DNA of 64,000 bases, taken from positions 1,568,001-1,632,000 of the forward strand of contig OY970340.1 of assembly GCA_963717465.1 (NCBI GenBank). The letters are read 5' to 3'. The translations under genes and the position numbers were made by a program. Position 1 is the stretch's first letter. Every line of letters begins with the position of its first letter. The DNA is from Candidatus Bathyarchaeota archaeon. Lineage in GTDB: Archaea > Thermoproteota > Bathyarchaeia > Bathyarchaeales > Bathycorpusculaceae. Shown in pieces: positions 12,330-63,191 of this stretch. The notes under the pieces are model-generated. The model was not told where the DNA came from and made no database searches. It saw nothing but the letters and a program-made list of their open reading frames with translations.

Positions 12330-12810
12330 GCAGTCGTCTATCCTTTTCTTGAATCTTTTTTGAATTAACACTTGTTTAATTAGGATATGTTTATCAGTTG
12401 CGGTCTTTTTTCAAAAGAAAAACGTGAAAAAAAGTCTATTCGAAGTATGCCTATCATTTTGGACTTTTCGTATTCAAGAAATCACTCAAGAATGTGAAAT
12501 TCCAATTTTGACCCATCAGATCCAGAACAATAGGTTTTTTGATTGTCTGGTGAGCGAGCCGTTGTTATTTAAATCTGACCTCCAAGCTGTCTGGCGATGG
12601 CAGTTTTAATACTGCGTATTAGGGTTGTGCTCAAACCCAGCTGAGAGGGATAAGCAGGTAAACTCACAGAAATGTTTTCTGTCTCTTTCAAACTCAGGTG
12701 TATTATTTTTTACGCGCATCGCCAACCAAGTGTGGGTGCGAGAAACAATAGCATGAGTTGAACCTTTTATACGCCACACGTTTTTTAATCTTTTTTTCAT
12801 AAAAGTTAGA

Positions 12811-12917
12811 TGGCGCCCAGGCCGGGATTCGGACCCGGGTCCTGCGGGCGACAGCCGCATATACTATTCCGTCAACATGAATTAATTCATGCTGAGACCG
12901 GACTATACTACCTGGGC
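12811..12917 (-). tRNA. tRNA-Asp(GTC) with encoded CCA and a ~31-nt intron in the D-loop (about 12866-12896)
   Basis: Acceptor stem GCCCAGG/CCTGGGC-G-CCA, anticodon arm TGCGG CT-GTC-GC CCGCA, T arm CCGGG/CCCGG. Removing the intron gives 76 nt. Confidence 0.92.
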
Positions 12918-12966
12918 TATTGTACGTTGGCTTAAGCGCCGCAACAATAAAAACTGTTTTAGCTAA

Positions 12967-13467
12967 TTAACCTTTCTCGGCAAGGTTTGTATTCGGTTTT
13001 TGATGTTTTTTGCCTGTCAGGTCTTTCAAGTCGATCTTGCCTATGCTCGTTGATGCGAGTTTTTCTGGTTTAACTTTTGCCAGTTTATCTTCTGGGTTGG
13101 CAGAGAGCTGCCTAACTAACACTTCTAGCGCATGCTGCTTCTCCCTGAGGTCATCAACCTGGAAATACTCTCCTGAAAAATGCACTGATACGTAGGCATA
13201 GTCACACTCGTTCGTTACACCGTAATCCAGTATCGCTTGTCCCCAAACTTTGTTGTTTGATCTTAAATAGGCTAGTTTTTTGCCTTCAGGTGCACAGTGG
13301 AAGTATAGACAATTCTTTGCTTCATCATAGCCATGGCTTAATGAAACCAGATACGGCTCGTCATCCACGCAGAGGGCAACAGTAACATACTTGGTACTTT
13401 TTAGCACCTGTCGTAATTCATTTTGATCCGTGATTTCCCTATCTTTACGCCGAACATGAAAAGACAT
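12967..13467 (-). CDS. Pyridoxamine 5'-phosphate oxidase-like flavin-binding protein (NimA/NimC-like)
   Basis: RRKDREI, PYLVSLSHGY, LYFHCAPEGKKL, YVSV, LTGK. Confidence 0.85.
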   Translation of the reverse strand: MSFHVRRKDREITDQNELRQVLKSTKYVTVALCVDDEPYLVSLSHGYDEAKNCLYFHCAPEGKKLAYLRSNNKVWGQAILDYGVTNECDYAYVSVHFSGEYFQVDDLREKQHALEVLVRQLSANPEDKLAKVKPEKLASTSIGKIDLKDLTGKKHQKPNTNLAEKG

Positions 13468-47080: not shown

Positions 47081-48220
47081 ATGTCGTCGCCAACCGATGG
47101 TAACCTTGACGTTTTAAACTCCATAATTGGGCCTTGGTACGAGTCTCTTGAGAATCCTCAAAAATCACAAGAGCAAGTGCTAACCCAATTACTTAGCAAG
47201 TACGCCGTTTCAGATTATGGCCAAAACCACAAAGCAACTAAAGTAGTAGGCATCGCTGATTTCCGTAAGAATTTTCCGATAATTAATTACCAGGGGCTAC
47301 TGCCGTACATTGCACAAATTCAGAACGGAAACTACAAGGCATTCCTTTCTGAACCGCCTGATTGCTGGGTTATGACTCGGGGTTCGACCGGAAAATCCAA
47401 AGTCATGCCCGCAACGCAAACCCATTTGAAACAAATCTTCAGTTGCGGCGCAAGAGGCTTAGTAAATTTTGCAGTTAAGAAGCAGAACTTTGAGGCTTTT
47501 TCTGGTTACATTCTTAACTTGAATTTTCCCTCAAGCGTTCATACACTTGTTCAGAACAACAAGAAGATCAATTATGGCTATAGCTCTGGAACGTATGCTA
47601 GGCTTAATCCCATGTTTAATCAGGTAAGCTTGCTTCCACGTCAAGAGGATATTGACGCTATAGGTCAAGGAATTGGAAAAGCGGACTGGGAGAAACGTTT
47701 TGAACTTGTCTATCAGCAAGCTCTTGACAAGAATGTAACTGCCACTATGGGTGTCACCCCGGTGATTATCTCTTTCGCGAGGTACATTCAAAAGAAGCAC
47801 GGTAAGAAGCCTCGTGAATTATGGAAGCCTCAAGCCTTTTTCTGCACAAGCGTGCGAAAGATACAGTTCAAATATGGGCCTATTTTAAGAAAATATTATG
47901 GTGATGCTCCTATTGTGGAAATGTACTCTGCGACGGAAGGGGTTTTTGCCCAGCAGCTTGATGATTTACCGTATGTGACGCCTAATTATGATACTTACTT
48001 TTTTGAAGTTGTTACAGGAAGTGGCGTGAAGATGCTTCATGAGCTTAAGCGTGGTGAATGGGGTAGACTTATTATTTCTTCGTGTATGCTTCCACGATAC
48101 GATATTGGGGACATGGTTGAATCTGCAGGAAAAAATTATTTTCGAATATTTGGTCGAGCAGATACTTTGAATATTTTAGAGCACAGGATATACCGATTGT
48201 TCTTTAATTGGCTTCTTTAA
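47081..48220 (+). CDS. GH3 auxin-responsive-promoter-like (ANL adenylating) protein
   Basis: FPIINY, TRGSTGKSK, YSATEG, RYDIGD, FGR. Confidence 0.75.
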   Translation: MSSPTDGNLDVLNSIIGPWYESLENPQKSQEQVLTQLLSKYAVSDYGQNHKATKVVGIADFRKNFPIINYQGLLPYIAQIQNGNYKAFLSEPPDCWVMTRGSTGKSKVMPATQTHLKQIFSCGARGLVNFAVKKQNFEAFSGYILNLNFPSSVHTLVQNNKKINYGYSSGTYARLNPMFNQVSLLPRQEDIDAIGQGIGKADWEKRFELVYQQALDKNVTATMGVTPVIISFARYIQKKHGKKPRELWKPQAFFCTSVRKIQFKYGPILRKYYGDAPIVEMYSATEGVFAQQLDDLPYVTPNYDTYFFEVVTGSGVKMLHELKRGEWGRLIISSCMLPRYDIGDMVESAGKNYFRIFGRADTLNILEHRIYRLFFNWLL

Positions 48221-49410: not shown

Positions 49411-50823
49411 TTGATGCTAACTCGTGTAGGTGGGATTACCTTCAAGAAGCTTGCAGTAGCAAAATTTGGCGGCAGCTTGTTAGACACGGACGGCAAAGGA
49501 ATACCTAAAATCGTTAGACGCATAAAAGAGTTAAATGCAAAAAACGGTTTTGGGCCAATTGTTGTTTTCTCCGCACCAATGGGCTGCACTGACATGCTCA
49601 TTCACATTGGAGAATCTTACGCCCAGTCAACACCGATTCCAATTGAGCCAGTCTTTGAAGTTTACGATCAATTGGCCAAGGCTCATATTAAGAGTGAATT
49701 GCTTGAACAGGCACAAAAAGAGTTAGGCAAATACAAAGCGCTTACTTCAACTGCTCTTAAATCAATTAATAAACGCTTCAATGGAAACATTAAGGCTAAA
49801 ATACTTACGTTAGGCGGCGAATTAGCCATGTCTACGTTAGCAGACTATATTTTAAAAGTAATGATTTAGACTCGTGCAGGCTTCCATTTGAAAATTGGCC
49901 CATTGTAACTGATGATAATTTTGAGGATGCATGGCCAAATTACACTTTCAGCCTAAAAAAAATCGACTGCCCTAATCGAACCGTTAGAGGAAGGCAAAAT
50001 TGTTTCGATGGCGGGATTTTTAGGAGCAACCGCAGATGGTCTTGAAACAATCTTAGGCAGAGGCGGCTCCGATTTAACTGCGGTCTTCACTTCATGTCTA
50101 CTAAAAAACATCTACAACACTGAGACTTTACTATACAAGGATGTGCCTGTTCAAAGTGCTGACCCAAAAGTTGTGCGAGGACAAAAAACAGAACATGTAA
50201 AATCGCTAACATACAATGAAGCCCATAAAGCATCAATGATGGGCATGAAAATTGTTCAAAGCCCCGCAATCGCAATGGCAAGACGATTCACTCAGCCCTT
50301 AATTGTAGTGCCAATCAATGAGCCAGAGAAAATTTCAGTAATTCATTCGCAATCAAGCGAAGGCGAAGTTGTAAAATGCTTAACTGGAAAAGCTGGATGC
50401 GCAATACTTTCAATGAACGATGAGAAAAGCAGATCACTTGAAGATTCCCTGCGAATATGGGAGAGACGGAATGACTTCATAGATTTAGGCGCTGAAACCC
50501 TTGAAACAGGCGAAAGCATTCGCGATTTTCTTTTCTTGGACTCTGATTTCCTAAAAAAGAACGAAGAAAAACTGAAAGGATTCGACGAGAACATGAAAAT
50601 TGAATATGGGCTAGGCGTCGTCACGCTTATCGGAGACAAAATGAAGGATTCAGCGGGCATAGCTTCACTAGCTATCGGCGCAATATCAGGCATAAACATT
50701 AAACGAGGAATCTTTGCACCCCACACATCACAAATAATAATCGTCGTAAACGAGAAAAACGTTCATGCAACAGTCGCCGCAATTCACCAAAAAAAGGCAG
50801 AAATGAACAAACCCATCGATTAA
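49411..50823 (+). CDS. Aspartokinase-like amino acid kinase with two compensating frameshifts (about 49855 and 49970); start uncertain
   Basis: VAKFGGS, VFSA, GGE; intervening frame reads WPIVTDDNFEDA; GFLG..LGRGGSDLTA, KDV...ADPK; ACT-like C-terminus. Confidence 0.8.
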
Positions 50824-50988: not shown

Positions 50989-52353
50989 CTATTTCATTTT
51001 ATTGTAGATGGCGTTTGTTAGTGCTTCGAATGGTTTGCCTAAAAGAGAGTAACCCTTATCGCCAAGGTTTTTTCTGATATAGAATTGAGTCATGCCTTTG
51101 ATGATTGCGAACTTTAGCTTGGGCTCAGTGACTTGTGAATCAAACAATAGTTTATGCTTTATCAATTGAATATTTTTTGGTTCTTCCCATTCTTCCGAAA
51201 ACATTTCTCCTTTAAGTCTTTGAAATAAGGGGGTTCCTGGAATAGGGTACGGTAGTGTGAAAGAAAGATAATCCAATGGGATGGAAGATGCAAATTTTAC
51301 GGTGTCCAAGATTGTTTTTTCGTTTTCGCCTGGATACCCTAAAATGAAAAAAGCTCCAGCCTTAATGTTTTTCGTTTTGCATAATTGGACAGCTGAATAT
51401 GCCTGACTTGTTGTTGTTTGCTTGTTCATGATTTTAAGAATTTCATCGTTTCCTGATTCAATTCCGAAGAAAATTCTTACGCATCCAGCTTGCTTCATTT
51501 TCTCGGCAACTTCGGAATCAAATGTGTCAACTCTTGATAGACATTCCCAGCTAATTTTCAAATTGCGTTTGATTATTTCATCACAAATTCCTATGAGCCT
51601 TCTGCAATTTAAGGTAAAACAGTCATCAGCAAACCATATCCTATTATAACCCAAAGAAGCAACTTCTTCGACCTCGTCAGCCACATTTGACGCCGTTCTC
51701 GCCCTGAAATTGTTACCGAACACTGGTCTGCTACAGAAATCACAGTTAAACGGGCAACCTCTGGAAGTCATAATAGCAGTAGTCGTATAGCCAAACCTTT
51801 CAAAATAATATTTCTTGTATGCATCGTTATCAAATAGATCTCGTGAAGGAAGCGGCAAACTATCCAAGTCATCAACAAAATCGCGCGGCGAAGTATGTTT
51901 GATTTGACCTGTGTCTTTATCTTTATATACCAATCCTTTAATCTGAGACAACGCGCTACCCTTCTCGAATGCACCAACCAGTTCAAGCATCGTTTGTTCG
52001 CCTTCACCAACAACAGTAACATCGAAAGCATCGAGAAATTCTTCAGGCTGCATGGTTGGAAGCGCTCCACCTGCAACAAGAAGTTCACAATGCTCTCTTA
52101 GCAAGCGGGCTAATTCTATTGACTTGTCTTTCATTGAATACATTGATTGGATTCCGATTATTTTCGGCTTTGAATTAATAATTTTTCTAAGTGCTTCATG
52201 CTGGTCAAGAAAAGTGCAGTCTACAACTTTAACTGAAATTCCATTTTGTTTTAGAACGGCTGCAATATATCCAAGACCTAATGGTGGAAACCTAAAAATT
52301 GATGTGTCAAAACTAGGGTGAAAGTATGGGTAAACCAAGAGAACATCTGTCAT
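50989..52353 (-). CDS. Cobalamin-binding radical SAM protein
   Basis: PPLGLGYIAA, VVGEGE, TSRGCPFNCDFC, FADDCF, FGIESG. Confidence 0.9.
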   Translation of the reverse strand: MTDVLLVYPYFHPSFDTSIFRFPPLGLGYIAAVLKQNGISVKVVDCTFLDQHEALRKIINSKPKIIGIQSMYSMKDKSIELARLLREHCELLVAGGALPTMQPEEFLDAFDVTVVGEGEQTMLELVGAFEKGSALSQIKGLVYKDKDTGQIKHTSPRDFVDDLDSLPLPSRDLFDNDAYKKYYFERFGYTTTAIMTSRGCPFNCDFCSRPVFGNNFRARTASNVADEVEEVASLGYNRIWFADDCFTLNCRRLIGICDEIIKRNLKISWECLSRVDTFDSEVAEKMKQAGCVRIFFGIESGNDEILKIMNKQTTTSQAYSAVQLCKTKNIKAGAFFILGYPGENEKTILDTVKFASSIPLDYLSFTLPYPIPGTPLFQRLKGEMFSEEWEEPKNIQLIKHKLLFDSQVTEPKLKFAIIKGMTQFYIRKNLGDKGYSLLGKPFEALTNAIYNKMK

Positions 52354-52362
52354 ATAATGTGG

Positions 52363-53211
52363 TCACCCAAAAACTTCAATTTCGTATTCGAACGAATCGC
52401 GATGGGCGTTGATCTCGTAGTCTAGGCCGATCCAATCCAAAGACCCTTCTACTAATTCCCTCCCACGTCGCAACAATGTTCCCTTAATATTTTTCAATTT
52501 GAAGCCTATTCTTCCTTGTTCATCCGCTATTTTCGCGTACTGAGCTGTAACGCTGTCCCAAAAACCGATTTTGTCATCATACAAATTAAGGCCATCAGAG
52601 TCAAAATATTTTTTGAAGAAATGTGCACCTTGCTCGTTTAAAACAAAAACCTTTTCAAGTCTTTGCCGATCAAGTTGGCTAATATCTAAATTCAAATCGA
52701 TTAAGTTCTTCTTAATCATGCAAGTTAAGATAACCTTACCTTTCGGAGTCGTTTTATCAAAAATTGATTTTACTCCAAACTTTGAAAGTAATCCTTGGGT
52801 GAAGATAATGAATCGAGCAATCCACTTATTTTTTTGATAAAACAAGGAAACAAAATCTATCATTGAACGCAACTGCTTATTTTCAAGTTTGAGGCTTCGA
52901 AACTGGTCCCTTGCTATCAAATCCATGGAAAACTCTTTTCGGATTACAACGAAATCTTTCCTTCTATGAACTCCTAAAAGAGACGAACCTGAAAAAACTG
53001 TTTCATCAGAATATTTTGCGATAGGAGCTCCAAAACCCATTCCTTCTCCAACAACTTCTCTACCGTTGTACAATAGAATAATTCCTTTCTGTAAATTCGC
53101 AGTTTTCATTATCTTAGGTTTTGTATCAGAATAGATTCTAGCTGCAACAAAATCAGAAATAGTAAAAGTATGCTGCGCCGCTGATGAAAACATTTGGTTT
53201 TGATTTGACAT
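52363..53211 (-). CDS. Hypothetical protein co-transcribed with the B12 radical SAM gene
   Basis: 282-aa ORF 9 bp upstream of the rSAM gene; LQKG, GEGMGFGAP, RGRE and W.GLDY segments look conserved-type. Confidence 0.75.
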   Translation of the reverse strand: MSNQNQMFSSAAQHTFTISDFVAARIYSDTKPKIMKTANLQKGIILLYNGREVVGEGMGFGAPIAKYSDETVFSGSSLLGVHRRKDFVVIRKEFSMDLIARDQFRSLKLENKQLRSMIDFVSLFYQKNKWIARFIIFTQGLLSKFGVKSIFDKTTPKGKVILTCMIKKNLIDLNLDISQLDRQRLEKVFVLNEQGAHFFKKYFDSDGLNLYDDKIGFWDSVTAQYAKIADEQGRIGFKLKNIKGTLLRRGRELVEGSLDWIGLDYEINAHRDSFEYEIEVFG

Positions 53212-54226: not shown

Positions 54227-55666
54227 ATGCCAAATGGAATTAGCCAAACCAAAGAATCGAAAACTGAAAGCGAAAAAACCAGGATTTATCAACTTTTATG
54301 CGTTGCCATTGGCGCTGAAAATGTCTCCACTCAAGAAGTAGATCGGGTAGCTTATTCAAGAGATTATTGGCCAATCGCCTTTAGGTGGTTTCTTGAAGGA
54401 AAAAATCCCACGTTGCCAGATTTCGTTTGCTGGCCTGGAAGTGCAAAAGAGGTTTCAGAAATCGTAAAGATAGCCTGTGAACAAAAAGTCCCCATTACGC
54501 CTTTTGGAGAGGGATCTGGAGTTTTAGGCGGCGCAATCCCAATCGATGGCGGCATAATCGTGGACCTAAAAAGAGTGAATAAAATTATTGAAATCAACGA
54601 TCAAAACCTAACCGTCACCGCGCAAACTGGAATCAACTTAACAAATTTAGAGGAAGAACTAAATAGAAAACAGTACACAATGGGGCATTTCCCCCAATCG
54701 TTTTATTGCTCTTCACTCGGAGGCAATCTTTCAACGCGAGCAGCAGGAGAATTCTCGACAAAGTACGGCAAAATAGACGACATTGTAATATCTCTTGAAG
54801 CAGTCCTCCCGCAAGGAGAAATAATCAAGTCGAAAACCACGCCAAAGTCTTCCACAGGTCCCGCTGTTGAACGCCTTTTAGTGGGCGGTGAAGGAACACT
54901 TGGCATTATCACTCAAGCAACACTTAAGATATGGCCTAAACCAGAAAAAACTGTTTTCAAATCTTATGCCTTTGTTAACATGCAAGACGGGTTAGACGTA
55001 ATCAGAAAAATTCTAAGAAAAGGCATCTTTCCAGCAGCCGTCAGATTATACGATAAACTGGAAACAGAAAGGCAGTTTTACCAGTTTTCTTTGGCAAAAG
55101 ACAAGTGCATGCTAGTCCTGGTAATGGAGGGCAGCGAAGAACTTGTGGACTTGGAGCAAAAAGTAACTGAAAAACTATGCAACGCGCAGGCTGTTGATAC
55201 AGGTGAAGAACCAGCACGCCACTGGCTTGAAAAAAGGTTCAACGTGAGGGAACTTGCAGATTTTTCACCGAAAGATGTGATTATTGACACGATTGAAGTG
55301 TCGGTCACATGGGATAAATCAATTAGTCTGTATGACTCGATTACTTCAGCGATAAATAGAATTAACGGGATATTCTATATCTCCGCGCACGCTTCACATT
55401 TCTATCCTCAAGGCGTATGTTTCTACTTCACTTTTGCAGGAGTACCAACGAAAACAAAGCCTGAAGATTTCTACAATAAAGTATGGGATAAAGCTATGAA
55501 GACTACTCTGGAAGTTGGGGGTTCAATAAGTCACCATCACGGCATAGGTATAATGCGTGAAAAATGGCTCGCCGATGAGTTAGGACAAAGCATGGAGGCG
55601 CTGAGAAAGATAAAGCATGCCTTGGACCCAGATAACATTATGAATCCGGGAAAAATGGGATTATAA
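54227..55666 (+). CDS. FAD-binding oxidoreductase, alkyl-DHAP synthase (ADPS)-like
   Basis: PFGEGSGV.GG, GHFPQSF..SSLGG..STRAAG..STKYGKIDD, GGEGTLGIIT, VRLYD, CFYF, SHHHGIG, DP.NIMNPGK. Confidence 0.85.
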   Translation: MPNGISQTKESKTESEKTRIYQLLCVAIGAENVSTQEVDRVAYSRDYWPIAFRWFLEGKNPTLPDFVCWPGSAKEVSEIVKIACEQKVPITPFGEGSGVLGGAIPIDGGIIVDLKRVNKIIEINDQNLTVTAQTGINLTNLEEELNRKQYTMGHFPQSFYCSSLGGNLSTRAAGEFSTKYGKIDDIVISLEAVLPQGEIIKSKTTPKSSTGPAVERLLVGGEGTLGIITQATLKIWPKPEKTVFKSYAFVNMQDGLDVIRKILRKGIFPAAVRLYDKLETERQFYQFSLAKDKCMLVLVMEGSEELVDLEQKVTEKLCNAQAVDTGEEPARHWLEKRFNVRELADFSPKDVIIDTIEVSVTWDKSISLYDSITSAINRINGIFYISAHASHFYPQGVCFYFTFAGVPTKTKPEDFYNKVWDKAMKTTLEVGGSISHHHGIGIMREKWLADELGQSMEALRKIKHALDPDNIMNPGKMGL

Positions 55667-55667
55667 A

Positions 55668-56870
55668 TTGGAAAAAATTCGAAAAAATTCATGGTTAATC
55701 AAGCTCATAGTAAAAGCAAACCTTTCAACAAAGAACCAACTGATAAAAAGCTTACTTTTCTCCGAAAAAAAATACTTGCCCAAAACAAGGCTTGAAGCAG
55801 ACGCAAAAAGCGTGCTAAAGTGTGCTCTTTGCCCAAACATGTGCAGGTTTGCTTGCCCTATATTGAAAGCCGAAAAATCTGAAGCAGTATCGCCTTCTGG
55901 GAAAACAAGAATTGCCCATCTTTTAGAAACTGACCATTTGGAATACAAAAAAGAAAACGTGGACATTTTTTACAATGATTTGGATTGCGAAGCTTGCAGG
56001 CAATGGTGCCCTTTCGGTTTCTCAGTCGGCGAGCTATCAATAGGCGTTAAACGAGATATTGCAAAAAAAGGATTAACCCCTAAAGCATTGCTTGAAGTCA
56101 AAGATAAGTTGCTTAAAGAGCATACGATTTATCCGGAAGGAATAACTTCATTTGCAGACCCGAAAGAAAAGAAAGCAAATATCTTGTACTTCGCTGGATG
56201 CACCACTCTAAACAAAAGAAAAGAAATCGCAGTCGCCACAACAAAAATACTGGAAAAGGCGGGAATCAGTTTTACGGTTTTACAAGAGGAGTGGTGTTGT
56301 GGCTATCCCCTGTATGCCTTGGGTTTTCAGGAAGAATTTCAATCATTCGCTGAGCGTAATTCAAAAGGCATCAAAGAGACTGGGTGCAAAATGATAATCT
56401 GCAGTTGCCCAACCTGTGCTTACGTGCTTAAAAAAATGTATCCACTTGGTAACTGCGAAGTTAAGCATGCATCACAGTACTTTCTTGAACTAATAAAAGG
56501 CAACAAGCTCAACCTAAAAGAAGTTGACAAAGAGTTTGTTTACCATGATCCATGTGTTCTTTCCAGAAAATTAGACGTTACTGAGGAGCCAAGGCAAGTC
56601 TTAAAAAGCATCCCAAATCTAACCTTAAAAGAGACCTATTTTAACAAAAAAAACACTCAATGCTGCGGAAAAGGCGGCGGATTAGGACTAGCGAACCCTG
56701 AGCTTTCCTTCCAAATAGCCCAAAATAGGGTCTCACAGCTAGAAGAAGTCTCATCCTCTATAGTCACCGCGTGCCCCTCATGTGAGCTTGCGCTCAAAAG
56801 TGCTGGTAAATCAATCGAGGTACTGGATTTATCTGAAATCATCTTGGCGGCTTTAAACAATGAAGGATGA
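55668..56870 (+). CDS. Fe-S oxidoreductase with two CCG domains (GlpC/GlcF/HdrD-like)
   Basis: CALCPNMCRFACP, CEACRQWCP, YFAGC, WCCG, SCPTC, YHDPC, QCCG, ACPSC. Confidence 0.9.
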   Translation: MEKIRKNSWLIKLIVKANLSTKNQLIKSLLFSEKKYLPKTRLEADAKSVLKCALCPNMCRFACPILKAEKSEAVSPSGKTRIAHLLETDHLEYKKENVDIFYNDLDCEACRQWCPFGFSVGELSIGVKRDIAKKGLTPKALLEVKDKLLKEHTIYPEGITSFADPKEKKANILYFAGCTTLNKRKEIAVATTKILEKAGISFTVLQEEWCCGYPLYALGFQEEFQSFAERNSKGIKETGCKMIICSCPTCAYVLKKMYPLGNCEVKHASQYFLELIKGNKLNLKEVDKEFVYHDPCVLSRKLDVTEEPRQVLKSIPNLTLKETYFNKKNTQCCGKGGGLGLANPELSFQIAQNRVSQLEEVSSSIVTACPSCELALKSAGKSIEVLDLSEIILAALNNEG

Positions 56871-58626
56871 AGAACTCGACAGGAAAGTAAAGCAATCTCT
56901 GAAAGAATTCGTCTTTCAGATAAACAGCACGGTAAAAGATGGCATCGTTTACTTAGATGGGCATGTGGATAATTGGGAGAACGTTGTTGAATTAGGTCAC
57001 CGCGTCGGGAAAATAAAGGGCGTGGAAGAAGTCGTCAACGACATCCTTTCAAATGAACCTGCTGGAGAAGTGGCACAGCCCCAGGTCAGACTTCCCAAGA
57101 AAATTTATGACCCAATCTTGCCAAAGAAAGCTGATGTAGTAATAATTGGAGGCGGCGTAATCGGCAGTTTTATCGCACGAGAACTATCGCGGTACAAACT
57201 GGACATCGTTCTATTGGAAAAGGAAAGCGACGTATGTGGCGCTGCAACAAGATCCAACAATGCACAAATACACACGGGGGTAGGCGAAAGTTCTGGGACA
57301 TTGAAAAGAAAATTGTGCATAAAATCCTGGCCCTTATTTGATAAAATTTCTGATGAGTTAGATGTACCCTACAATAAAACTGGTCTACTAGTTCTTGTAA
57401 CTAAGGATAGCCTATCCAAAAAAATCCCCACGCCTCTTAGGCATTTTTTGTGTAAATACTTGATTCCTTTGCCTATTTGGATAATGGCAAAAAGAGCCAA
57501 AGACAAACCAAAGATTGTTAGAAAAGCGAAGCTGCAGCAAATGGAACCGTACCTGACTGAAAATGCGCTTGTCGGGGTTCTTATGCCAAATTATGGAATA
57601 ATTGACCCTTTTAGACTGACTCTTTCACTCGCTGAAAACGCGGTTCAAAATGGTGCACAAGTATTTATTGACACCGAGGTAACAGGCATAAAAGTTGAGG
57701 ATAAAAAGATCAAAGCAGTTGTTACCACTAGAGGAATGATTGATACAGATTTTGTAGTAAATGCAGCAGGCGTTTATGCTGATAGGATCGCTGATATCGC
57801 TGGGACTCGAGAATTTACCATACACCCAAGAAAAGGCGGAACCGTACTTTTCGATAAAAAGACAAACAAATATGCTGCCCATCAATTAAACGAGTTTAAG
57901 CTTCCAAGGGACGAGCACACTAAAGGCGGTGGAGTATTAAAAACCCCAGAGGGGAACATAAACTTTGGACCAAGCGCTGTGGAAGTTCCCGACAAAGAGG
58001 ATACGTCGATGTCAAGAGAGGATCTTGATAACATCCTCGAGAAATATTCTACCGTTTTCTCCAGTTTTCCAAAAAAATCAGTAATTACCTATTTTTCTGG
58101 GCTAAGAGCTTGCACATACAAAGAAGATTTTTTGATAAAGCCCTCAAAAAACGTTAAAGGCCTAATCCATGCAGCGGGGATTCAATCTCCAGGATTAACA
58201 TGCTCCCCAACTATCGCAAGAATGATTTTGGAGATTCTGGGAAAGGAGGGATTGCCCATGAGCGAAAAAGAAAATTTTAATCCTCTTTCAAAAAGAGTCC
58301 CAGTATTTAGAGAGCTAACCTTGGAGGAAAAAAAGAAAATCGTTTCAGAAGACAAACTTTATGGAAATGTGGTCTGCAGATGTGAGCACGTTACTGAAGG
58401 AGAAATAGTCAAGGCTATTCATTCGCCAATTCCAGCTCTCACTGTAGACGCTATAAAGAGGAGGACAAGAGCGGGGATGGGAAGGTGCCAAAGTGGTTTC
58501 TGCGGGTATCTGGTTGCCCGAATACTTGCTAGAGAATTGGGTATTCCCATGGAGGAGATAACGAAGAACGGTGGTAATTCACGCCTTTTCATTGGCAAAA
58601 CTAAGGAGCTTTTGGCAGGGGATTAG
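56860..58626 (+). CDS. BON-domain-fused FAD-dependent dehydrogenase with BFD-like 2Fe-2S tail (GlpA/LhgO-like)
   Basis: N-terminal BON pattern (VKDGIVYLDGHV...GVEEVVNDI), IIGGGVIG, IQSPGLT, VCRCEHVT, RAGMGRCQSGFC. Confidence 0.85.
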   Translation: MKDEELDRKVKQSLKEFVFQINSTVKDGIVYLDGHVDNWENVVELGHRVGKIKGVEEVVNDILSNEPAGEVAQPQVRLPKKIYDPILPKKADVVIIGGGVIGSFIARELSRYKLDIVLLEKESDVCGAATRSNNAQIHTGVGESSGTLKRKLCIKSWPLFDKISDELDVPYNKTGLLVLVTKDSLSKKIPTPLRHFLCKYLIPLPIWIMAKRAKDKPKIVRKAKLQQMEPYLTENALVGVLMPNYGIIDPFRLTLSLAENAVQNGAQVFIDTEVTGIKVEDKKIKAVVTTRGMIDTDFVVNAAGVYADRIADIAGTREFTIHPRKGGTVLFDKKTNKYAAHQLNEFKLPRDEHTKGGGVLKTPEGNINFGPSAVEVPDKEDTSMSREDLDNILEKYSTVFSSFPKKSVITYFSGLRACTYKEDFLIKPSKNVKGLIHAAGIQSPGLTCSPTIARMILEILGKEGLPMSEKENFNPLSKRVPVFRELTLEEKKKIVSEDKLYGNVVCRCEHVTEGEIVKAIHSPIPALTVDAIKRRTRAGMGRCQSGFCGYLVARILARELGIPMEEITKNGGNSRLFIGKTKELLAGD

Positions 58627-58627
58627 C

Positions 58628-59881
58628 ATGATGAACGTTGACACGCTTGTTATTGGCGGTGGGCCAGCAGGTTTAGCTGCTGCTTTAAGCGCGTACAAGA
58701 ATGGAGTAAAAGATGTGTTGCTTATTGAACGTAATCCAGAGCTAGGCGGAATACTTCCTCAATGCATACATGATGGGTTTGGAACCGTAATTTTCAAGGA
58801 GCGATTAACAGGGCCAGAATACGCAGAGCGCTATATCCAAGAAATCAAAAAATCGGCCATAAATGTGAAGCTGGAAACAATGGTTTTGCAGATAGATCGC
58901 TTCAAGAGAGTAATTGCTGTCAACCCGACTGATGGTTTGCTTGACATACAAGCAAAAAGCTTGATTTTGACGATGGGTTGCAGAGAGCGAACGCGACAGC
59001 AAATTATCATCCCGGGAGATAGACCGGCAGGAATTTACACAGCAGGGGTAGCTCAAAGATACATAAATATGCAGGGAATAATGCCTGGCAAAGAAATTGT
59101 GATTCTTGGTTCTGGAGATGTCGGCCTTATAATGGCTAGAAGATTTACTCTGGAAGGAGCCAAAGTGGAGGGAGTTTACGAGGTCATGCCGACTCCTGGA
59201 GGATTAACTAGAAATCTTGTTCAGTGCCTGCAAGATTATGAAATTCCTCTGCATCTTTCTCACACGATTGTAAACATAAAAGGTAAAGAACGGGTTGAAG
59301 GAGTAACTGTTGCACAAGTCGATTCTAACATGAAGCCCATTCAAAGTACTGAAAGGTTTGTTCCATGCGACACAGTGATAGTGTCCGTGGGTTTAATTCC
59401 TGAAAATGAACTCTCCGAAATGGTGCCTTTAAATTTTGATTCTGAGACTGGTGGTCCAGTAGTTGATGAATCCATGGAAACTTCAGAAGCAGGAGTTTTC
59501 GCCGCTGGAAATGTTGTTTACGTACATGACTTAGTTGATGATGTTTCAGCTGAAGGCGAAATAGCAGGAAAGGCAGCTGCAAAATACATCAAGGGAGAAT
59601 TACAGGAGAGAGAAAAATTAGTAAAGGTCGAGGCGGGAGAAAACGTAAGGTATGTTGTTCCGCAAATAATTCGCAAAAAAGGTTTTGAAGAAAACATAAA
59701 ACTCTGCTTTCGTGTGAAAGAAGTTCAAAAAAACATTTCTGTAAAAACGTTTGCAGATGACAAAGAGATTTGCTCAGTGAAGCAACGCATTGTAAGACCG
59801 CCGGAGATGCTTTCCGTTAATGTGTCCTCTTCAGCATTGGAAAATGCCAAAGTTGTTAAATTAAAGGTGACGAAAGAATGA
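58628..59881 (+). CDS. NAD(P)/FAD-dependent oxidoreductase (partner subunit of the GlpA-like enzyme)
   Basis: GGGPAG, GGILPQCIHDGFG, MGCRERTR, ILGSGDVGLIMARR, FAAGNV. Confidence 0.88.
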   Translation: MMNVDTLVIGGGPAGLAAALSAYKNGVKDVLLIERNPELGGILPQCIHDGFGTVIFKERLTGPEYAERYIQEIKKSAINVKLETMVLQIDRFKRVIAVNPTDGLLDIQAKSLILTMGCRERTRQQIIIPGDRPAGIYTAGVAQRYINMQGIMPGKEIVILGSGDVGLIMARRFTLEGAKVEGVYEVMPTPGGLTRNLVQCLQDYEIPLHLSHTIVNIKGKERVEGVTVAQVDSNMKPIQSTERFVPCDTVIVSVGLIPENELSEMVPLNFDSETGGPVVDESMETSEAGVFAAGNVVYVHDLVDDVSAEGEIAGKAAAKYIKGELQEREKLVKVEAGENVRYVVPQIIRKKGFEENIKLCFRVKEVQKNISVKTFADDKEICSVKQRIVRPPEMLSVNVSSSALENAKVVKLKVTKE

Positions 59882-60252
59882 AAAAAGTCCATAAATTAAC
59901 CTGTATAGGCTGCCCGTCTAGTTGCGAGATTAAGGTAATCGAGAGCGACGACAAGCAGTTGCAGGTAGTTGGCGGCTGTAAAATAGGCAAAGAATACGTA
60001 ATCAAGGAAGTTACAGCTCCCGAGAGAATTTTAACTTCGACCGTTAGAGTTGAAAATGGCGTATTGCCTGTTCTCCCTGTTAAAAGTGAGAAGCCACTTC
60101 CTAAAGGATTAATTAAAGAATCTGTGCGAGAGCTTGCAAAAATTAAGGTTAAAGCACCTGTAGAGCAAGGAAGCATAATTTATGGAAATATGCTAAATAC
60201 AGGTGTCAACGTCATAGCATCTAGAAGCTTGGAGGCGAGAAGTCTTGAATGA
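59878..60252 (+). CDS. DUF1667-like small Fe-S subunit
   Basis: CIGCPSSC, GC.IG..Y, P.RILTSTV, PVK. Confidence 0.8.
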   Translation: MKKVHKLTCIGCPSSCEIKVIESDDKQLQVVGGCKIGKEYVIKEVTAPERILTSTVRVENGVLPVLPVKSEKPLPKGLIKESVRELAKIKVKAPVEQGSIIYGNMLNTGVNVIASRSLEARSLE

Positions 60253-61819
60253 AAAGAAGTATATTTTGGTGAACGATGTCGGAACCACGATGCTAAAAGC
60301 CGTTGTGCTTGACGAGCTTCTCAACATCGTAGCTGAAGCTTCAGAAGAAATATCACAAATTTATCCGAAGCCTGGATGGTGCGAACAAGACCCAAACGAG
60401 ATTTGGGATAAAAGCTTGGCTGCATCAAAAAGGGCTCTGCAAAAAGTTGGTGCAGAAAACATTGCAGCCATGGGTTTAGTAACCCAAAGAGCCACAATTA
60501 TTGTCTGGGATAAGACAACAGGAAAACCAGTCTACAATGCTATAACATGGCAAGACATCAGGACTGCAAGCTTTTGCCAAAAAATAAACAGCAAAGCAAG
60601 CGTCAAACTTTTTCATGGCTTAGGCAAAACCGTCCAAAAAATATCACTTGTAATTAAACCTCTAAGAAAATCAGCTAGTACGAATAGGCTTATTCAACTT
60701 TCGCACTTTAATTTTTTGCCAGTTCAGGCTGGAGCACGCTTTAACTGGATAATGAATAATGTGCCCGAAGCAAAAGAAATTCAGCAGAGTGGCAATTTGC
60801 TTTTTGGGACGGTTGACACTTGGCTATTATGGAAGCATACTCAAGGACAAATTTACGCAACAGACTACTCTAACGCATCCTCCACTGGCATCTTTGACCC
60901 CTTTACTTTAGGCTGGAGCAAGTTCATAATGGACTCTTTTGAAATGCCAAAAAATCTAAAGCTTCCTGAAATCAAACAAACCAGCGATAACTTTGGCAAA
61001 ACCAGCGCATTCGGTGTGCCAATCAACATAAGAAGTGTTGTGGCGGATCAGCAGGCGGCATTATTTGGGGAAGCATGTTTCTCTAATGGAGATGTTAAAT
61101 GCACTAATGGAACTGGCACATTTATCGACATAAACACTGGTAATACTCCCATCGCGTCGAGTCATGGTCTTACTCCTTTGGTAGCTTGGAAAATAAATGA
61201 TAAAGTCACTTTCATGTTGGAAGGTTTTGTCCAAAATACTGGTTCATTGGTACAGTGGTTAAAAGACTTAGAACTCATCAGCAGTCCCCAAGAAAGTGAG
61301 GATTTAGCCAAGAGCATTGAAGACACTGCCGGAGTCATTGTTGTGCCAGCTCTAACGGGACTTGGCGCCCCATATTGGGACCCTAATGCTCGGGGAACAG
61401 TGATAGGTCTTACTAGAAAGGCTAAAAAAGAACACATCGTTAGAGCTGCCTTAGAATCCATCGGATACAGCTGCAACGACATATTGGAAGTCCTGAAAAA
61501 AGACACGGGTTTTTTGATATCTTCGATTAAAACAGATGGAGGAGCATCGAAAAACAATTTCATCATACAATTTCTCGCCGACATAACAAACGCACAAATT
61601 GAAAGACCAAAAAATTTAGAAATGACCGCTATAGGCGCAGGATGCTTAGCTGGTCTTGCAGTTGGCTACTGGAAATCAACTGAGGACCTGCTAAAAAATC
61701 GCAAGGTCGACAAGGTGTTCTCGCCCAAAATGGAAGATAGTCTGAGAATGACTTTGTGTTCTCAGTGGAAGAGAGCTATCCAAAGAAGCTACGATTGGGC
61801 AACTGATGAGATTCAATAA
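60245..61819 (+). CDS. FGGY-family glycerol kinase, GK5-like with internal insertion
   Basis: DVGTT, TQRAT, TWQD.RT, FGTVDTWL, ADQQ, GTGTF, PYWD, DGG. Confidence 0.88.
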   Translation: MNEKKYILVNDVGTTMLKAVVLDELLNIVAEASEEISQIYPKPGWCEQDPNEIWDKSLAASKRALQKVGAENIAAMGLVTQRATIIVWDKTTGKPVYNAITWQDIRTASFCQKINSKASVKLFHGLGKTVQKISLVIKPLRKSASTNRLIQLSHFNFLPVQAGARFNWIMNNVPEAKEIQQSGNLLFGTVDTWLLWKHTQGQIYATDYSNASSTGIFDPFTLGWSKFIMDSFEMPKNLKLPEIKQTSDNFGKTSAFGVPINIRSVVADQQAALFGEACFSNGDVKCTNGTGTFIDINTGNTPIASSHGLTPLVAWKINDKVTFMLEGFVQNTGSLVQWLKDLELISSPQESEDLAKSIEDTAGVIVVPALTGLGAPYWDPNARGTVIGLTRKAKKEHIVRAALESIGYSCNDILEVLKKDTGFLISSIKTDGGASKNNFIIQFLADITNAQIERPKNLEMTAIGAGCLAGLAVGYWKSTEDLLKNRKVDKVFSPKMEDSLRMTLCSQWKRAIQRSYDWATDEIQ

Positions 61820-62258: not shown

Positions 62259-63191
62259 ATGTTAATGAAGTCGAGTGACACAATTGAAGAAATGACATGT
62301 TACACAGACACGTGTTGCTATAAAGGAAAGGTCCCAGGGAATTTAAAAGTTAAACTTAAAGACTTCGATACTGGATGGGCACAAAACGAAGAAGCCAAAT
62401 TTTTAGGAAAAGGTAAATTGAAGGAATGGGCAAACAAGTTGCTGGAGGAAAATCGACAGCAACTGGCAAAAGCACAGGAGTTGCTCTATGCAAATAATAC
62501 TTACGCTTTGCTTGTGATTTTCCAAGGCATGGATGCAGCCGGCAAAGACGGAATAATCAAGCATGTGATGTCAGGTGTTAACCCGCAGGGTTGTTGTGTA
62601 ACAAGTTTTAAGCAGCCTTCTGTTACGGAGTTGGAGCATGATTTTTTGTGGCGACAGGTTGTGGCTTTGCCTGAAAAGGGCATGATAGGCATTTTCAACC
62701 GATCCTATTATGAAGAAGTCTTGGTTGTCAAGGTACACCAAAACCTCTTAAATAACCAAAATCTCCCAAAGAAAAAGTATAACGATAAGTTTTGGAAAAA
62801 TCGTTATGAAGACATTACAAGTTTTGAGCATCATCTTGTGCGGAACGGAACGTTAATACTAAAGTTCTTTTTGCATATTTCTAGAGATGAGCAGAAGAAA
62901 CGTTTTATTGAACGCTTAAGCGATCCAGGTAAATATTGGAAGTTTTCTGAAGCTGACCTTAAAGAAAGGGACTATTGGGATAACTACATGAAAGCTTACG
63001 AGGGCATGTTAAATAATACAAGCACGCAATGGGCACCATGGTACATTATCCCTGCAGACTACAAATGGTTAGCTCGCTCACTAGTTGCAGATATCATAAC
63101 CACGAACATACTATCTTTGGGCATCAAATACCCACTCTTGAATGAACAAAAACTTAAAGCAATCAAAGAAGCAAAAAGAAAACTTGAATAA
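62259..63191 (+). CDS. ppk2: Polyphosphate kinase 2 family protein (class III-like)
   Basis: QGMDAAGKDG, VNPQG, FKQPS, HDFLWR, FNRSYYEEVL, KFFLHIS, PWYIIPAD.KW. Confidence 0.92.
   Translation: MLMKSSDTIEEMTCYTDTCCYKGKVPGNLKVKLKDFDTGWAQNEEAKFLGKGKLKEWANKLLEENRQQLAKAQELLYANNTYALLVIFQGMDAAGKDGIIKHVMSGVNPQGCCVTSFKQPSVTELEHDFLWRQVVALPEKGMIGIFNRSYYEEVLVVKVHQNLLNNQNLPKKKYNDKFWKNRYEDITSFEHHLVRNGTLILKFFLHISRDEQKKRFIERLSDPGKYWKFSEADLKERDYWDNYMKAYEGMLNNTSTQWAPWYIIPADYKWLARSLVADIITTNILSLGIKYPLLNEQKLKAIKEAKRKLE

Follow-up and report, generated by a model that had tools for sequence, protein, structure and literature searches.

A six-gene operon of Candidatus Bathyarchaeota archaeon would, on the sequence comparisons reported here, provide for the anaerobic catabolism of a 1-O-substituted sn-glycerol, probably an alkyl- or acylglycerol, through a substituted DHAP and a flavin-dependent oxidative cleavage of the C1–O bond. 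We give this reading a rough probability of 0.55, while the narrower proposition that the pathway cleaves a true ether is a tentative one.

Gene layout of the operon

The operon lies at positions 54227–61819 of the window, by which we mean the whole 64,000-nt stretch analyzed (GCA_963717465.1, contig OY970340.1, positions 1,568,001–1,632,000). The preliminary description had spoken of six coupled genes, and the ORF listing and Pfam domains agree: six plus-strand ORFs occupy the locus, joined by gaps of 1–4 nt or overlaps of 4–11 nt, and some 1 kb free of any ORF of 90 or more aa precedes the first of them. Scanning the operon for promoters and terminators gave counts at chance level. As also described earlier, the operon has no GlpF channel; the host genome has two MIP-family matches, both located elsewhere. 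Neither a lipase nor a lipid transporter is encoded in this copy of the operon.

A GK5-type kinase lacking two canonical GlpK residues

The last gene (60245–61819, + strand, 524 aa; Pfam FGGY_N and FGGY_C) encodes a GK5-type FGGY kinase that we propose, from its site residues, to be a kinase of 1-O-substituted glycerol. Glycerol kinase is reported to contact glycerol through Glu, Arg, Asp, Gln, Trp and Phe residues (PMC7765489). The operon kinase departs from the canonical GlpK set, keeping R83, W103, D245, Q246 and F270 while Glu84 is replaced by alanine (A83) and Tyr135 is lost. Across 25 locus kinases and 118 homologues the first four residues are always kept, and Glu84 and Tyr135 never occur, a loss that may open room for a group at C1. 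The protein also carries a basic amphipathic insert of 26 aa relative to E. coli GlpK (net charge +8), modeled as helices by AlphaFold. It passes the GlpK subfamily HMM and misses the equivalog TIGR01311 (530 < 590); its top ESM match is a eukaryotic GK5 cluster (0.98), and in a quick tree that carries a long-branch warning it joins the named animal GK5 sequences and is separated from canonical GlpK (SH-aLRT 87). The earlier label of a GK5-like kinase is thereby upheld, by the non-Glu residue at 84, the missing PYF tyrosine, the insert and the clade alike.

As a control, we examined 83 full-length kinases in loci L146–L245. The 69 that keep Glu84 never share a locus with an AGPS-like gene (0/69), while FngA is present in 30 of these loci and GlpF in 10. 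Six of the eight non-Glu kinases in the same loci lack both an AGPS-like gene and FngA nearby, so the kinase type is not bound to the operon. QRA is likewise read in two unrelated bacterial kinases that lie next to AGPS-like genes and have no insert. In a plasmid search with the kinase the best 25 of 448 records were annotated as GlpK or unannotated.

A modified FngABC dehydrogenase

The three preceding genes encode an FngA variant, an FAD and 2Fe-2S subunit of glycerol-3-phosphate dehydrogenase type (56860–58626, + strand, 588 aa; Pfam BON, DAO and Fer2_BFD), the NAD-binding flavoprotein FngB (start at 58628 or 58631, end at 59881, + strand, 416 aa; Pfam Pyr_redox_2) and the 4Fe-4S subunit FngC (59878–60252, + strand, 124 aa; Pfam DUF1667). 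The BON-fused dehydrogenase with two partner subunits announced earlier is thus present, though its assignment to GlpA and GlpABC fails: the B and C genes are of FngB and DUF1667 type, and both the GlpA HMM (142 < 553) and the GlpC HMM (70 < 280) are missed by a wide margin. Judged by its sequence, the enzyme belongs instead to the electron-confurcating FngABC family as delimited in PMC13689815. The subunit order is that of the family (a DAO and BFD 2Fe-2S A subunit, an FAD/NAD B subunit, a DUF1667 C subunit), and the FngA C-terminus has the four-Cys set of FngABC. FngB, which in P. furiosus is the subunit of the bifurcating flavin, carries the Gln-Cys-Ile-His motif reported for all FngB homologues (PMC13689815). 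FngC has Cys9/12/16/27 in a CxxCxxxC...C pattern, the same as that of Cys9/12/16/35 reported for P. furiosus, except that fewer residues separate the last cysteine from the others.

What sets this enzyme apart is its FngA, which has an N-terminal BON domain and an insert of about 13 aa, basic and hydrophobic (net charge +6), so that the extra insertions first noticed in both kinase and dehydrogenase are real. Domain and insert occur together in 23/23 operon-type copies, whereas none of 32 canonical FngA proteins has the BON domain, 31 of them have 43–44 residues in the insert region against 55–57 in the operon type, and none carries either addition in its operon form. Canonical FngABC is described as a cytoplasmic enzyme using ferredoxin and NAD (PMC13689815), and electron transfer therefore offers no explanation for membrane-type additions in FngA. 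In the six supplements of that paper, no mention of IPR025650, IPR007055, Bathyarch or Theionarch was found.

An AGPS-like flavoprotein and its iron–sulfur partner

The first gene (54227–55666, + strand, 479 aa; Pfam FAD_binding_4 and FAD-oxidase_C) encodes an AGPS/ADPS-like FAD oxidoreductase of VAO/PCMH fold, from a short-segment archaeal clade. Its best PDB sequence matches are AGPS (209 and 207 bits, against 149 bits for D-lactate dehydrogenase), and Foldseek places AGPS on top for its model (pLDDT 86, falling to 59 at residues 341–350), although structure comparison by VIA leaves AGPS (Z 37.6, 461 aligned, 2.6 Å) tied with LDHD (Z 37.9, 442 aligned, 2.9 Å). The RLYD arginine, CFYF tyrosine and HHH motif singled out in the preliminary description (R273, Y400, H436–438) align with the catalytic R419, Y578 and H615–617 of Cavia AGPS and are invariant in 80/80 close homologues. 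The phylogenetic check against GlcD likewise separated the two: GlcD is the best NCBIfam match, below its equivalog cut-off (231 < 568 bits); the metal site reads H-S-H/Y/HHH, against H-G-D/H/GEH or AEH in GlcD/LDH-like proteins; and the flavoprotein falls outside the GlcD/LDH-like clade in a quick tree with a long-branch warning, built without eukaryotic AGPS, whose position was judged from alignments.

The AGPS-like identity stands on match and catalytic residues and does not extend to the lipid-type features. Segment 276–296 has 20 aa against 37–42 aa in lipid-context members, some 24 residues are missing that AGPS of Cavia and Dictyostelium shares with members linked to an acyltransferase or YegS, and in place of the Y-x-R-D motif (AYMRD, PYIRD or PYLRD in lipid-type AGPS) the sequence reads NVRELADF. 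The long cap segment and the Y-x-R-D motif of AGPS have a role in membrane and tunnel formation, and a lipid tunnel in this flavoprotein is, on its sequence, unproven. The AGPS signature is also present in YgcU and in members beside sugar ABC transporters or in sugar and polyol operons, so it marks ketose-phosphate chemistry and not lipid. We propose the flavoprotein as the C1–O cleaving dehydrogenase subunit.

Its neighbor (55668–56870, + strand, 400 aa; Pfam CCG twice and Fer4_8) is the CCG iron–sulfur protein expected from the preliminary description, with two CCG domains, a 4Fe-4S domain and a basic N-terminal extension (net charge +8 over the first 40 aa). The pairing with the flavoprotein is close: a CCG gene was called beside it in 78/80 related loci and 15/15 further loci, the two are fused in P0246 and P0247 (45% identity), and the cysteines are invariant in 69 aligned copies. 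Adjacency and fusions are the basis on which we propose the CCG protein as electron-accepting partner of the flavoprotein. So constant an Fe-S partner argues for oxidation, as opposed to AGPS-style exchange, and the ETF genes adjoining flavoprotein relatives in E. coli and Ilyobacter are consistent with electrons leaving the flavin.

Neighborhood survey

The co-occurrence survey covered 80 related loci out of 242 relatives, and 9 of 74 plasmid records. Counted on many short contigs and with an ORF picker that hid some small genes, FngA is present in 21/80 related loci and all six genes in 10/80. The cluster is not a chance arrangement. Copies of the operon are kin, not independent events.

The slots for kinase and dehydrogenase are refilled by unrelated families. 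A YegS/DAG-kinase-family kinase precedes FngABC, flavoprotein and CCG in L297, GlpD is fused to the flavoprotein in P0253/P0254, a GpsA-like gene lies nearby in 7/15 further loci, and plasmid loci combine a glycerol dehydrogenase or SDR and a kinase with the AGPS-like gene; each of these routes would give substituted DHAP. An alpha/beta hydrolase accompanies 36/80 related and 7/15 further loci. Together with the loss of Glu84 and Tyr135, the fusions and the basic amphipathic segments of kinase, FngA and CCG N-terminus, the YegS locus and the hydrolase neighbors support the action of kinase, dehydrogenase and flavoprotein, in this order, on a glycerol substituted at C1, and make the membrane-interface substrate suggested earlier probable.

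Proposed pathway and alternatives

In the pathway we favor, the substrate would be worked at the membrane surface as a monoalkyl glycerol ether or a monoacylglycerol, by an operon that appears to have spread horizontally. The GK5-type kinase would phosphorylate the free sn-3 hydroxyl, and FngABC would then oxidize C2 to the substituted DHAP, drawing on reduced ferredoxin and reducing NAD+; G3P oxidoreductase activity has been reported for the P. furiosus enzyme (PMC13689815), and the change of substrate is our inference. Substituted DHAP should be unusable by triosephosphate isomerase. In the third and least certain step, the AGPS-like flavoprotein would break its C1–O bond and release an alcohol or acid. 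With electrons exiting through the CCG subunit, oxidation is the most likely course of this step, and its product would be hydroxypyruvaldehyde phosphate or a triose phosphate of higher oxidation state; as a variant, the flavin might catalyze hydrolysis to DHAP, with CCG re-oxidizing trapped flavin. The host encodes TPI, and plain DHAP would thus need no further enzyme. For an oxidized triose the operon encodes no enzyme, and the host shows a single, weak DJ-1 match. Second copies in the host are limited to two weak flavoprotein matches, and no GDPD was found in its genome (88% complete).

The cell would harvest the C3 backbone. There is no sign of chain use in this host: no acyl-CoA dehydrogenase was found in its genome (88% complete) or in 12/20 other holders. 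The order of kinase, dehydrogenase and flavoprotein on a C1-substituted glycerol, as first suggested, survives, while an ether, as against an ester or another C1 group, is not established. Stereochemistry makes it unlikely that the archaeal ethers of the cell itself are recycled in this way.

Of the competing accounts, the best keeps the three steps but applies them to a small, water-soluble C1-substituted glycerol or polyol (a short alkyl ether, diglycerol, an amino or thio substituent, or a tetritol); flavoprotein and CCG would form an alpha-ketol dehydrogenase, with complex assembly or membrane tethering as the sole function of the basic helices. Relatives with the same signature and the short segment adjoin sugar ABC and MFS transporters, SDR, glycerol dehydrogenase, PdxA and four-carbon acid kinase genes, 4/80 loci and L148 have a divergent LsrF-like aldolase gene upstream, beta-oxidation is missing in many holders, and 32% of FngABC enzymes have been inferred to use other polyols (PMC13689815). 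We nevertheless consider it unlikely, as three subunits have gained basic amphipathic segments that canonical copies and soluble-context kinases lack, the kinase sits in the animal GK5 group, YegS, hydrolase and GGR-family neighbors recur, and no sugar transporter was found among the recurrent neighbors of the 80 loci.

Ester-to-ether remodeling would run from monoacylglycerol through lyso-PA to acyl-DHAP, exchange the acyl group for a fatty or isoprenoid alcohol in AGPS fashion, and reduce the product to alkyl-G3P by FngABC. The complete set of AGPS catalytic residues fits this, as do the reported reversibility of FngABC (PMC13689815), a FAR-like/acyl-CoA-synthetase fusion encoded by the host, a GGR-family gene after the kinase in 2/80 loci and the contribution of MXAN_1676 to Myxococcus ether lipids (PMC9131029). 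Yet exchange requires no Fe-S partner, the lipid-type AGPS segment is missing, and no PF01553 acyltransferase was found in the host genome (88% complete). The FAR-like fusion we rejected as the fatty-alcohol donor: it does not travel with the operon, since none of 37 flavoprotein-holding genomes matches it over its full length, and its one full match comes from a genome of the same genus that lacks the operon. The synthetic direction offered as an option in the preliminary description is accordingly very improbable. Least probable is ordinary glycerol use by a divergent glycerol kinase and FngABC, with a D-2-hydroxyacid dehydrogenase of lactate, glycolate or glycerate type co-opted with CCG as electron sink, for which speak the HMM match of the kinase and its standing as the sole GlpK-like gene detected in the host, the MIP channels, the sub-threshold GlcD match and the LDHD tie, and against which stand the loss of Glu84 and Tyr135 in every operon kinase, the separation of canonical kinase loci from the flavoprotein and the distinct metal site and clade of the latter.

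Significance

Glycerol ethers serve as stable biomarkers in anoxic sediments, and a removal route would therefore bear on carbon turnover and proxy use. Within the favored catabolic reading, the operon is a testable candidate for O2-free ether-lipid breakdown, with three enzymes open to purification and inexpensive candidate substrates. In its widest form, which we hold to be possible though doubtful, a GK5-type kinase of alkylglycerols, a confurcating dehydrogenase of alkyl-G3P and, to cleave the ether bond, an 'alkyl-DHAP dehydrogenase' of the AGPS-like and Fe-S proteins would degrade ether lipids independently of O2. If true, the pathway would be distributed among archaea of sediments (Thermoplasmatota, Theionarchaea, Methanolliviera, Asgard, Bathyarchaeia), animal GK5 would be a lipid-glycerol kinase, and eukaryotic AGPS would be a redox enzyme of catabolism that was recruited for synthesis. 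The operon is also a caution for genome surveys, which often take AGPS homologues as markers of ether synthesis (PMC11868695; 10.64898/2026.06.23.733905): most of these proteins may be catabolic. In a search of mainly open-access literature, we found no publication assigning this operon or an anaerobic enzyme route for alkylglycerol.

Comparison with known systems

AGPS/ADPS (EC 2.5.1.26; PDB 4bby, 2uuu) is the nearest relative of the flavoprotein, which differs in its shorter cap segment, in lacking Y-x-R-D and the N-terminal extension, and in having a constant Fe-S partner and no acyltransferase (GNPAT) or FAR partner in the operon. P. furiosus FngABC (PF2005–2007) shares subunits, order, the QCIH motif and the 2Fe-2S and 4Fe-4S cysteine sets, and likewise adjoins a glycerol-kinase-family gene (PMC13689815). 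Here, in contrast, FngA bears the BON domain and basic insert, HTGIG/HTGVG stands instead of HAGYD, the kinase is non-canonical, and the flavoprotein/CCG pair is added. Animal GK5 shares with the operon kinase the loss of Glu84 and the PYF tyrosine, the quick-tree clade and a basic insert at the same position (+16 residues, against +26 here); its reported lipid link is genetic, as an unproven candidate gene in a lipid QTL hotspot that includes ether PE (PMC13320870).

By description, the P. aeruginosa PA3026-PA3025-PA3024-PA3023 operon (GliR regulon) resembles ours in combining an FAD oxidoreductase, a G3P dehydrogenase, an FGGY kinase and a YegS lipid kinase; its dehydrogenase is of the aerobic GlpD type, and the available text describes no CCG or FngBC (PMC8151288). 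The operon is reported to be co-induced with a phospholipase C and is assigned to glycerolipid metabolism; its authors draw a synthesis route, the same text giving neither substrate nor phenotype, and deletion of PA3026-PA3024 did not affect growth on glycerol or on Biolog plates (PMC8151288), which is neither support for a lipid substrate nor a test of one. Our pathway supplies a specific substrate hypothesis for PA3026-PA3024, for animal GK5 and for a lipid-adapted FngABC member.

E. coli ygcU-ygcW-ygcE with the ETF-like ygcQR combines the same flavoprotein signature with a kinase, a candidate C2-oxidizing dehydrogenase and an electron acceptor module, but it belongs to a distant clade, has a kinase of another subfamily and MFS transporters, and lacks the amphipathic inserts. 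Two animal enzymes are alike in reaction, their families showing no relation to the operon genes by the matches obtained. ACAD10 is reported to phosphorylate 1-O-alkylglycerol, as a protein-kinase-fold enzyme (PMC13596139), and AGMO, named in reviews as the enzyme known to cleave the O-alkyl ether bond, releases the alkyl chain in a reaction that depends on O2 and tetrahydrobiopterin (PMC3520006, PMC9131029).

Operon organization and distribution

The operon comprises six + strand ORFs (window positions 54227..61819) whose junctions are gaps of 1-4 nt or overlaps of 4-11 nt. Pfam and NCBIfam assign, in order, FAD-linked oxidase, CCG/4Fe-4S, BON-DAO-2Fe-2S, NAD-binding flavoprotein, DUF1667 and FGGY kinase domains; ORF positions, strand, tight junctions and domain matches thus bear out the six coupled genes of the preliminary description. 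We read the operon as catabolism of a lipid-type 1-O-substituted glycerol, with a probability of roughly 0.55, while ether cleavage proper is a tentative and rather doubtful refinement.

The host genome is a single contig of 3.05 Mb (completeness 88%); it probably belongs to Bathyarchaeia, since its kinase is 82% identical to a kinase named as Bathyarchaeia. The operon is not characteristic of the host lineage: at E<=1e-40 the flavoprotein had no match in any of 14 same-genus genomes, and the next-best match among 301 searched genomes of the class was 37% identical. The closest flavoprotein relatives (60-63%) belong to Thermoplasmata, Thermococci/Theionarchaea and Methanolliviera, which points to lateral acquisition. 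A polyphosphate kinase 2 gene (window 62259-63191) lies immediately 3' of the operon and is not a recurrent neighbour in related loci. An aspartokinase-like gene (window 49411-50823) is broken into two ORFs (152 and 271 aa), a B12-binding radical SAM gene and a 282-aa gene without a Pfam family (window 50989-53211, - strand) are divergent from the operon, and a GH3-like adenylating protein, so named by sequence appearance, is encoded farther upstream (window 47081-48220).

Conservation of the gene neighbourhood

In the best 80 of 242 flavoprotein relatives in GTDB contigs, which were retained for locus survey, a CCG gene was called in 78, FngA in 21 and the complete six-gene set in 10. An FGGY kinase was present in 60 loci (25 of the window's type, the others of another subfamily in Asgard archaea) and an alpha/beta hydrolase in 36, and no kinase of the 80 loci gave the QRET reading. 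Fifteen further loci, the best matches after genome G304 in a search of 301 genomes from the phylum of G304, contained CCG (15/15), window-type kinase (13/15), hydrolase (7/15) and a GpsA-like gene below cut-off (7/15). In one of these fifteen, locus L297, a YegS/diacylglycerol-kinase-family gene is followed by BON-FngABC, flavoprotein and CCG. The 32 longer homologues include flavoprotein-CCG fusions (P0246, P0247) and GlpD-flavoprotein fusions (P0251, P0253, P0254). From neighbours and fusions we infer that the flavoprotein partners CCG and acts downstream of a G3P-type dehydrogenase rather than in its place.

Seven Asgard loci (L063, L080, L082, L093, L095, L102, L108) have a GK5-type kinase, L080 and L093 together with the other FGGY subfamily that most Asgard loci use. 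In 34 Asgard loci the flavoprotein is immediately preceded by a gene of ~490 aa without Pfam/NCBIfam match (L090:1412-2887 and relatives). In L037 and L038 (Methanolliviera, UBA186) the gene after the kinase belongs to the geranylgeranyl reductase family; both of these holders have many acyl-CoA dehydrogenases (20 and 13 matches). An LsrF-like aldolase/thiolase gene, passing the NCBIfam cut-off in L049, is divergent from the flavoprotein in Thermoplasmata-type loci (L039, L049, L051, L055, L148).

The flavoprotein and its CCG partner

AGPS is the best sequence match of the flavoprotein and fills the top Foldseek ranks, though D-lactate dehydrogenase scores level with it by structural Z. All 80 close homologues retain the catalytic Arg, Tyr and triple His, and the flavoprotein lacks the metal motif of GlcD/LDH. 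Of the comparison proteins first proposed, AGPS is favoured over GlcD, but the signature is shared with YgcU. Nine of 74 plasmid records with a flavoprotein match were read. Three related alphaproteobacterial loci hold a xylulokinase-like gene, sugar ABC transporter, glycerol dehydrogenase and SDR; others hold GlpD with a kinase (two loci), glycerol dehydrogenase with a kinase, an acyltransferase, or SDR, kinase, MFS and ETF. On a Methylobacterium nodulans plasmid (L251), a flavoprotein bearing the AGPS signature lies beside PdxA and a four-carbon acid sugar kinase, a combination that could be a further route to C1-substituted DHAP. The E. coli ygcU locus is similar to these plasmid loci. Because the signature is common to all plasmid-locus members read and ygcU, it is not lipid-specific. 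Its presence in sugar-transporter/polyol-type loci favours a small soluble substrate, a reading we consider unlikely; the additions to FngA and kinase described below and the YegS replacement in L297 favour lipid-type substituted-glycerol catabolism, and to that extent the original interpretation is supported.

An AGPS-type lipid tunnel is more doubtful. Members adjoining acyltransferase or YegS have a segment of 37-42 residues and a Y-x-R-D/E motif, as do Cavia and Dictyostelium AGPS. In the window flavoprotein the segment (276-296) has 20 residues (16-20 in 80/80 close homologues) and NVRELADF replaces the motif. These differences argue most strongly against classing it as AGPS or supposing a C16 tunnel. 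The basic N-terminus of the CCG partner could supply the missing membrane contact. A second AGPS-like type, with a long segment and beside a YegS lipid kinase, occurs in a single family within the class of the host (L008-L010; L242, L243) and is nearer lipid-type AGPS than the window flavoprotein.

The dehydrogenase

The predicted GlpA-like dehydrogenase with two partners matches a three-subunit G3P-type enzyme of another family, FngABC, with the QCIH motif and cysteine sets of the P. furiosus enzyme. The latter was shown to be cytoplasmic and reversible, using G3P together with reduced ferredoxin to reduce NAD+ (PMC13689815). We compared 23 operon-type FngA copies (one, L154, classed by its kinase, as its contig stops short of the flavoprotein) with 32 controls from canonical glycerol loci. 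All 23 have a BON domain and an insert region of 55-57 residues, versus 43-44 in 31/32 controls, with mean net charge +5.4 versus -1.5; since these copies are kin, the gain counts as one or few events. BON domains bind phospholipid. As canonical FngABC needs no membrane, the BON domain and insert would be better explained by a substrate located in the membrane.

The kinase

Aligned with E. coli GlpK, the kinase retains D10, R83, W103, D245, Q246 and F270, has Ala for Glu84, lacks Tyr135 and carries 26 extra residues. The same retained/lost pattern holds in 118/118 homologues, and Glu84 and Tyr135 are missing in 25/25 locus kinases (15-26 extra residues). Both residues presumably point to the O1 end in glycerol kinase. 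In the Chaetomium structure, glycerol is bound by Glu, Arg, Asp and Gln (PMC7765489). The insert, helical in the predicted model (net +8), contains a basic amphipathic window stronger than any elsewhere in the kinase, matched by 0/444 windows outside.

An alignment of 143 of 150 cluster representatives (suitable length) plus the window kinase, with 15 misaligned rows removed, showed Glu84 missing in 27/30 long-insert kinases and kept in 87/99 short ones. Named long-insert kinases include sea-squirt and insect GK5, and a quick tree groups GK5 with operon kinases (support 87), separate from canonical GlpK (100); animal GK5 thus resembles the operon kinase in both insert and clade. Among 83 full-length control kinases in 100 loci (6 unreadable at position 84), Glu84 was kept in 69, with no AGPS-like gene in the loci of these 69; of the 8 without it, 1 had the flavoprotein, 1 more FngA and 6 neither. 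Two bacterial kinases adjoining AGPS-like genes read QRA and have no insert. The control counts and QRA kinases suggest that Glu84 loss tracks a C1-substituted substrate; the lipid-type variant may be marked out by the insert.

Proposed route and alternatives

Each of the varied neighbour sets could supply X-CH2-CO-CH2-phosphate, with phosphorylation either preceding or following oxidation. Plain DHAP would pass to TPI, which the host has. AGPS acts on substituted DHAP via a flavin N5 adduct with loss of the C1 leaving group; here the adduct would be resolved by water rather than fatty alcohol and the reduced flavin re-oxidised, giving oxidative C1-O cleavage. This would be the simplest reading because an Fe-S or ETF partner is constant, and VAO-fold enzymes also perform oxidative ether cleavage. 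Since GlpK and FngA act on sn-G3P, a substrate of bacterial/eukaryotic stereochemistry would be expected, unlike archaeal phytanylglycerol. Acyl-CoA dehydrogenase, PF01553 acyltransferase and GDPD were not found in the host (88% complete); acyl-CoA dehydrogenase occurs in 8/20 non-Asgard and 16/17 Asgard genomes holding the flavoprotein.

Synthesis, the reverse direction previously offered as an alternative, is now very improbable. The host encodes an 818-aa FAR-like/acyl-CoA synthetase fusion (G000:C1:1286349-1289127; L261:10350-13128) with N-terminal NAD_binding_4 and a C-terminal acyl-CoA synthetase domain, whose AMP-binding C-terminus seems continued in a second frame (ORF 12751-13128). 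Its one full-length relative (54%) is in same-genus genome G157, and the lack of a full-length match in the 37 flavoprotein-holding genomes weakens synthesis. Plain glycerol use is least probable of all.

Comparison with known systems

The component parts of this putative catabolic operon are already known, and our literature search found no published assignment of the six-gene set. A published bacterial analogue is presented as a glycerolipid operon whose route is drawn towards synthesis, and it showed no phenotype (PMC8151288). AGPS homologues have been taken as markers of synthesis (PMC11868695; 10.64898/2026.06.23.733905), animal alkylglycerol kinase is assigned to ACAD10 (PMC13596139), and GK5 is a candidate only, at a lipid QTL (PMC13320870). 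To these our analysis adds the FngABC identification, the insert and residue comparisons with controls, the YegS replacement and a test against synthesis.
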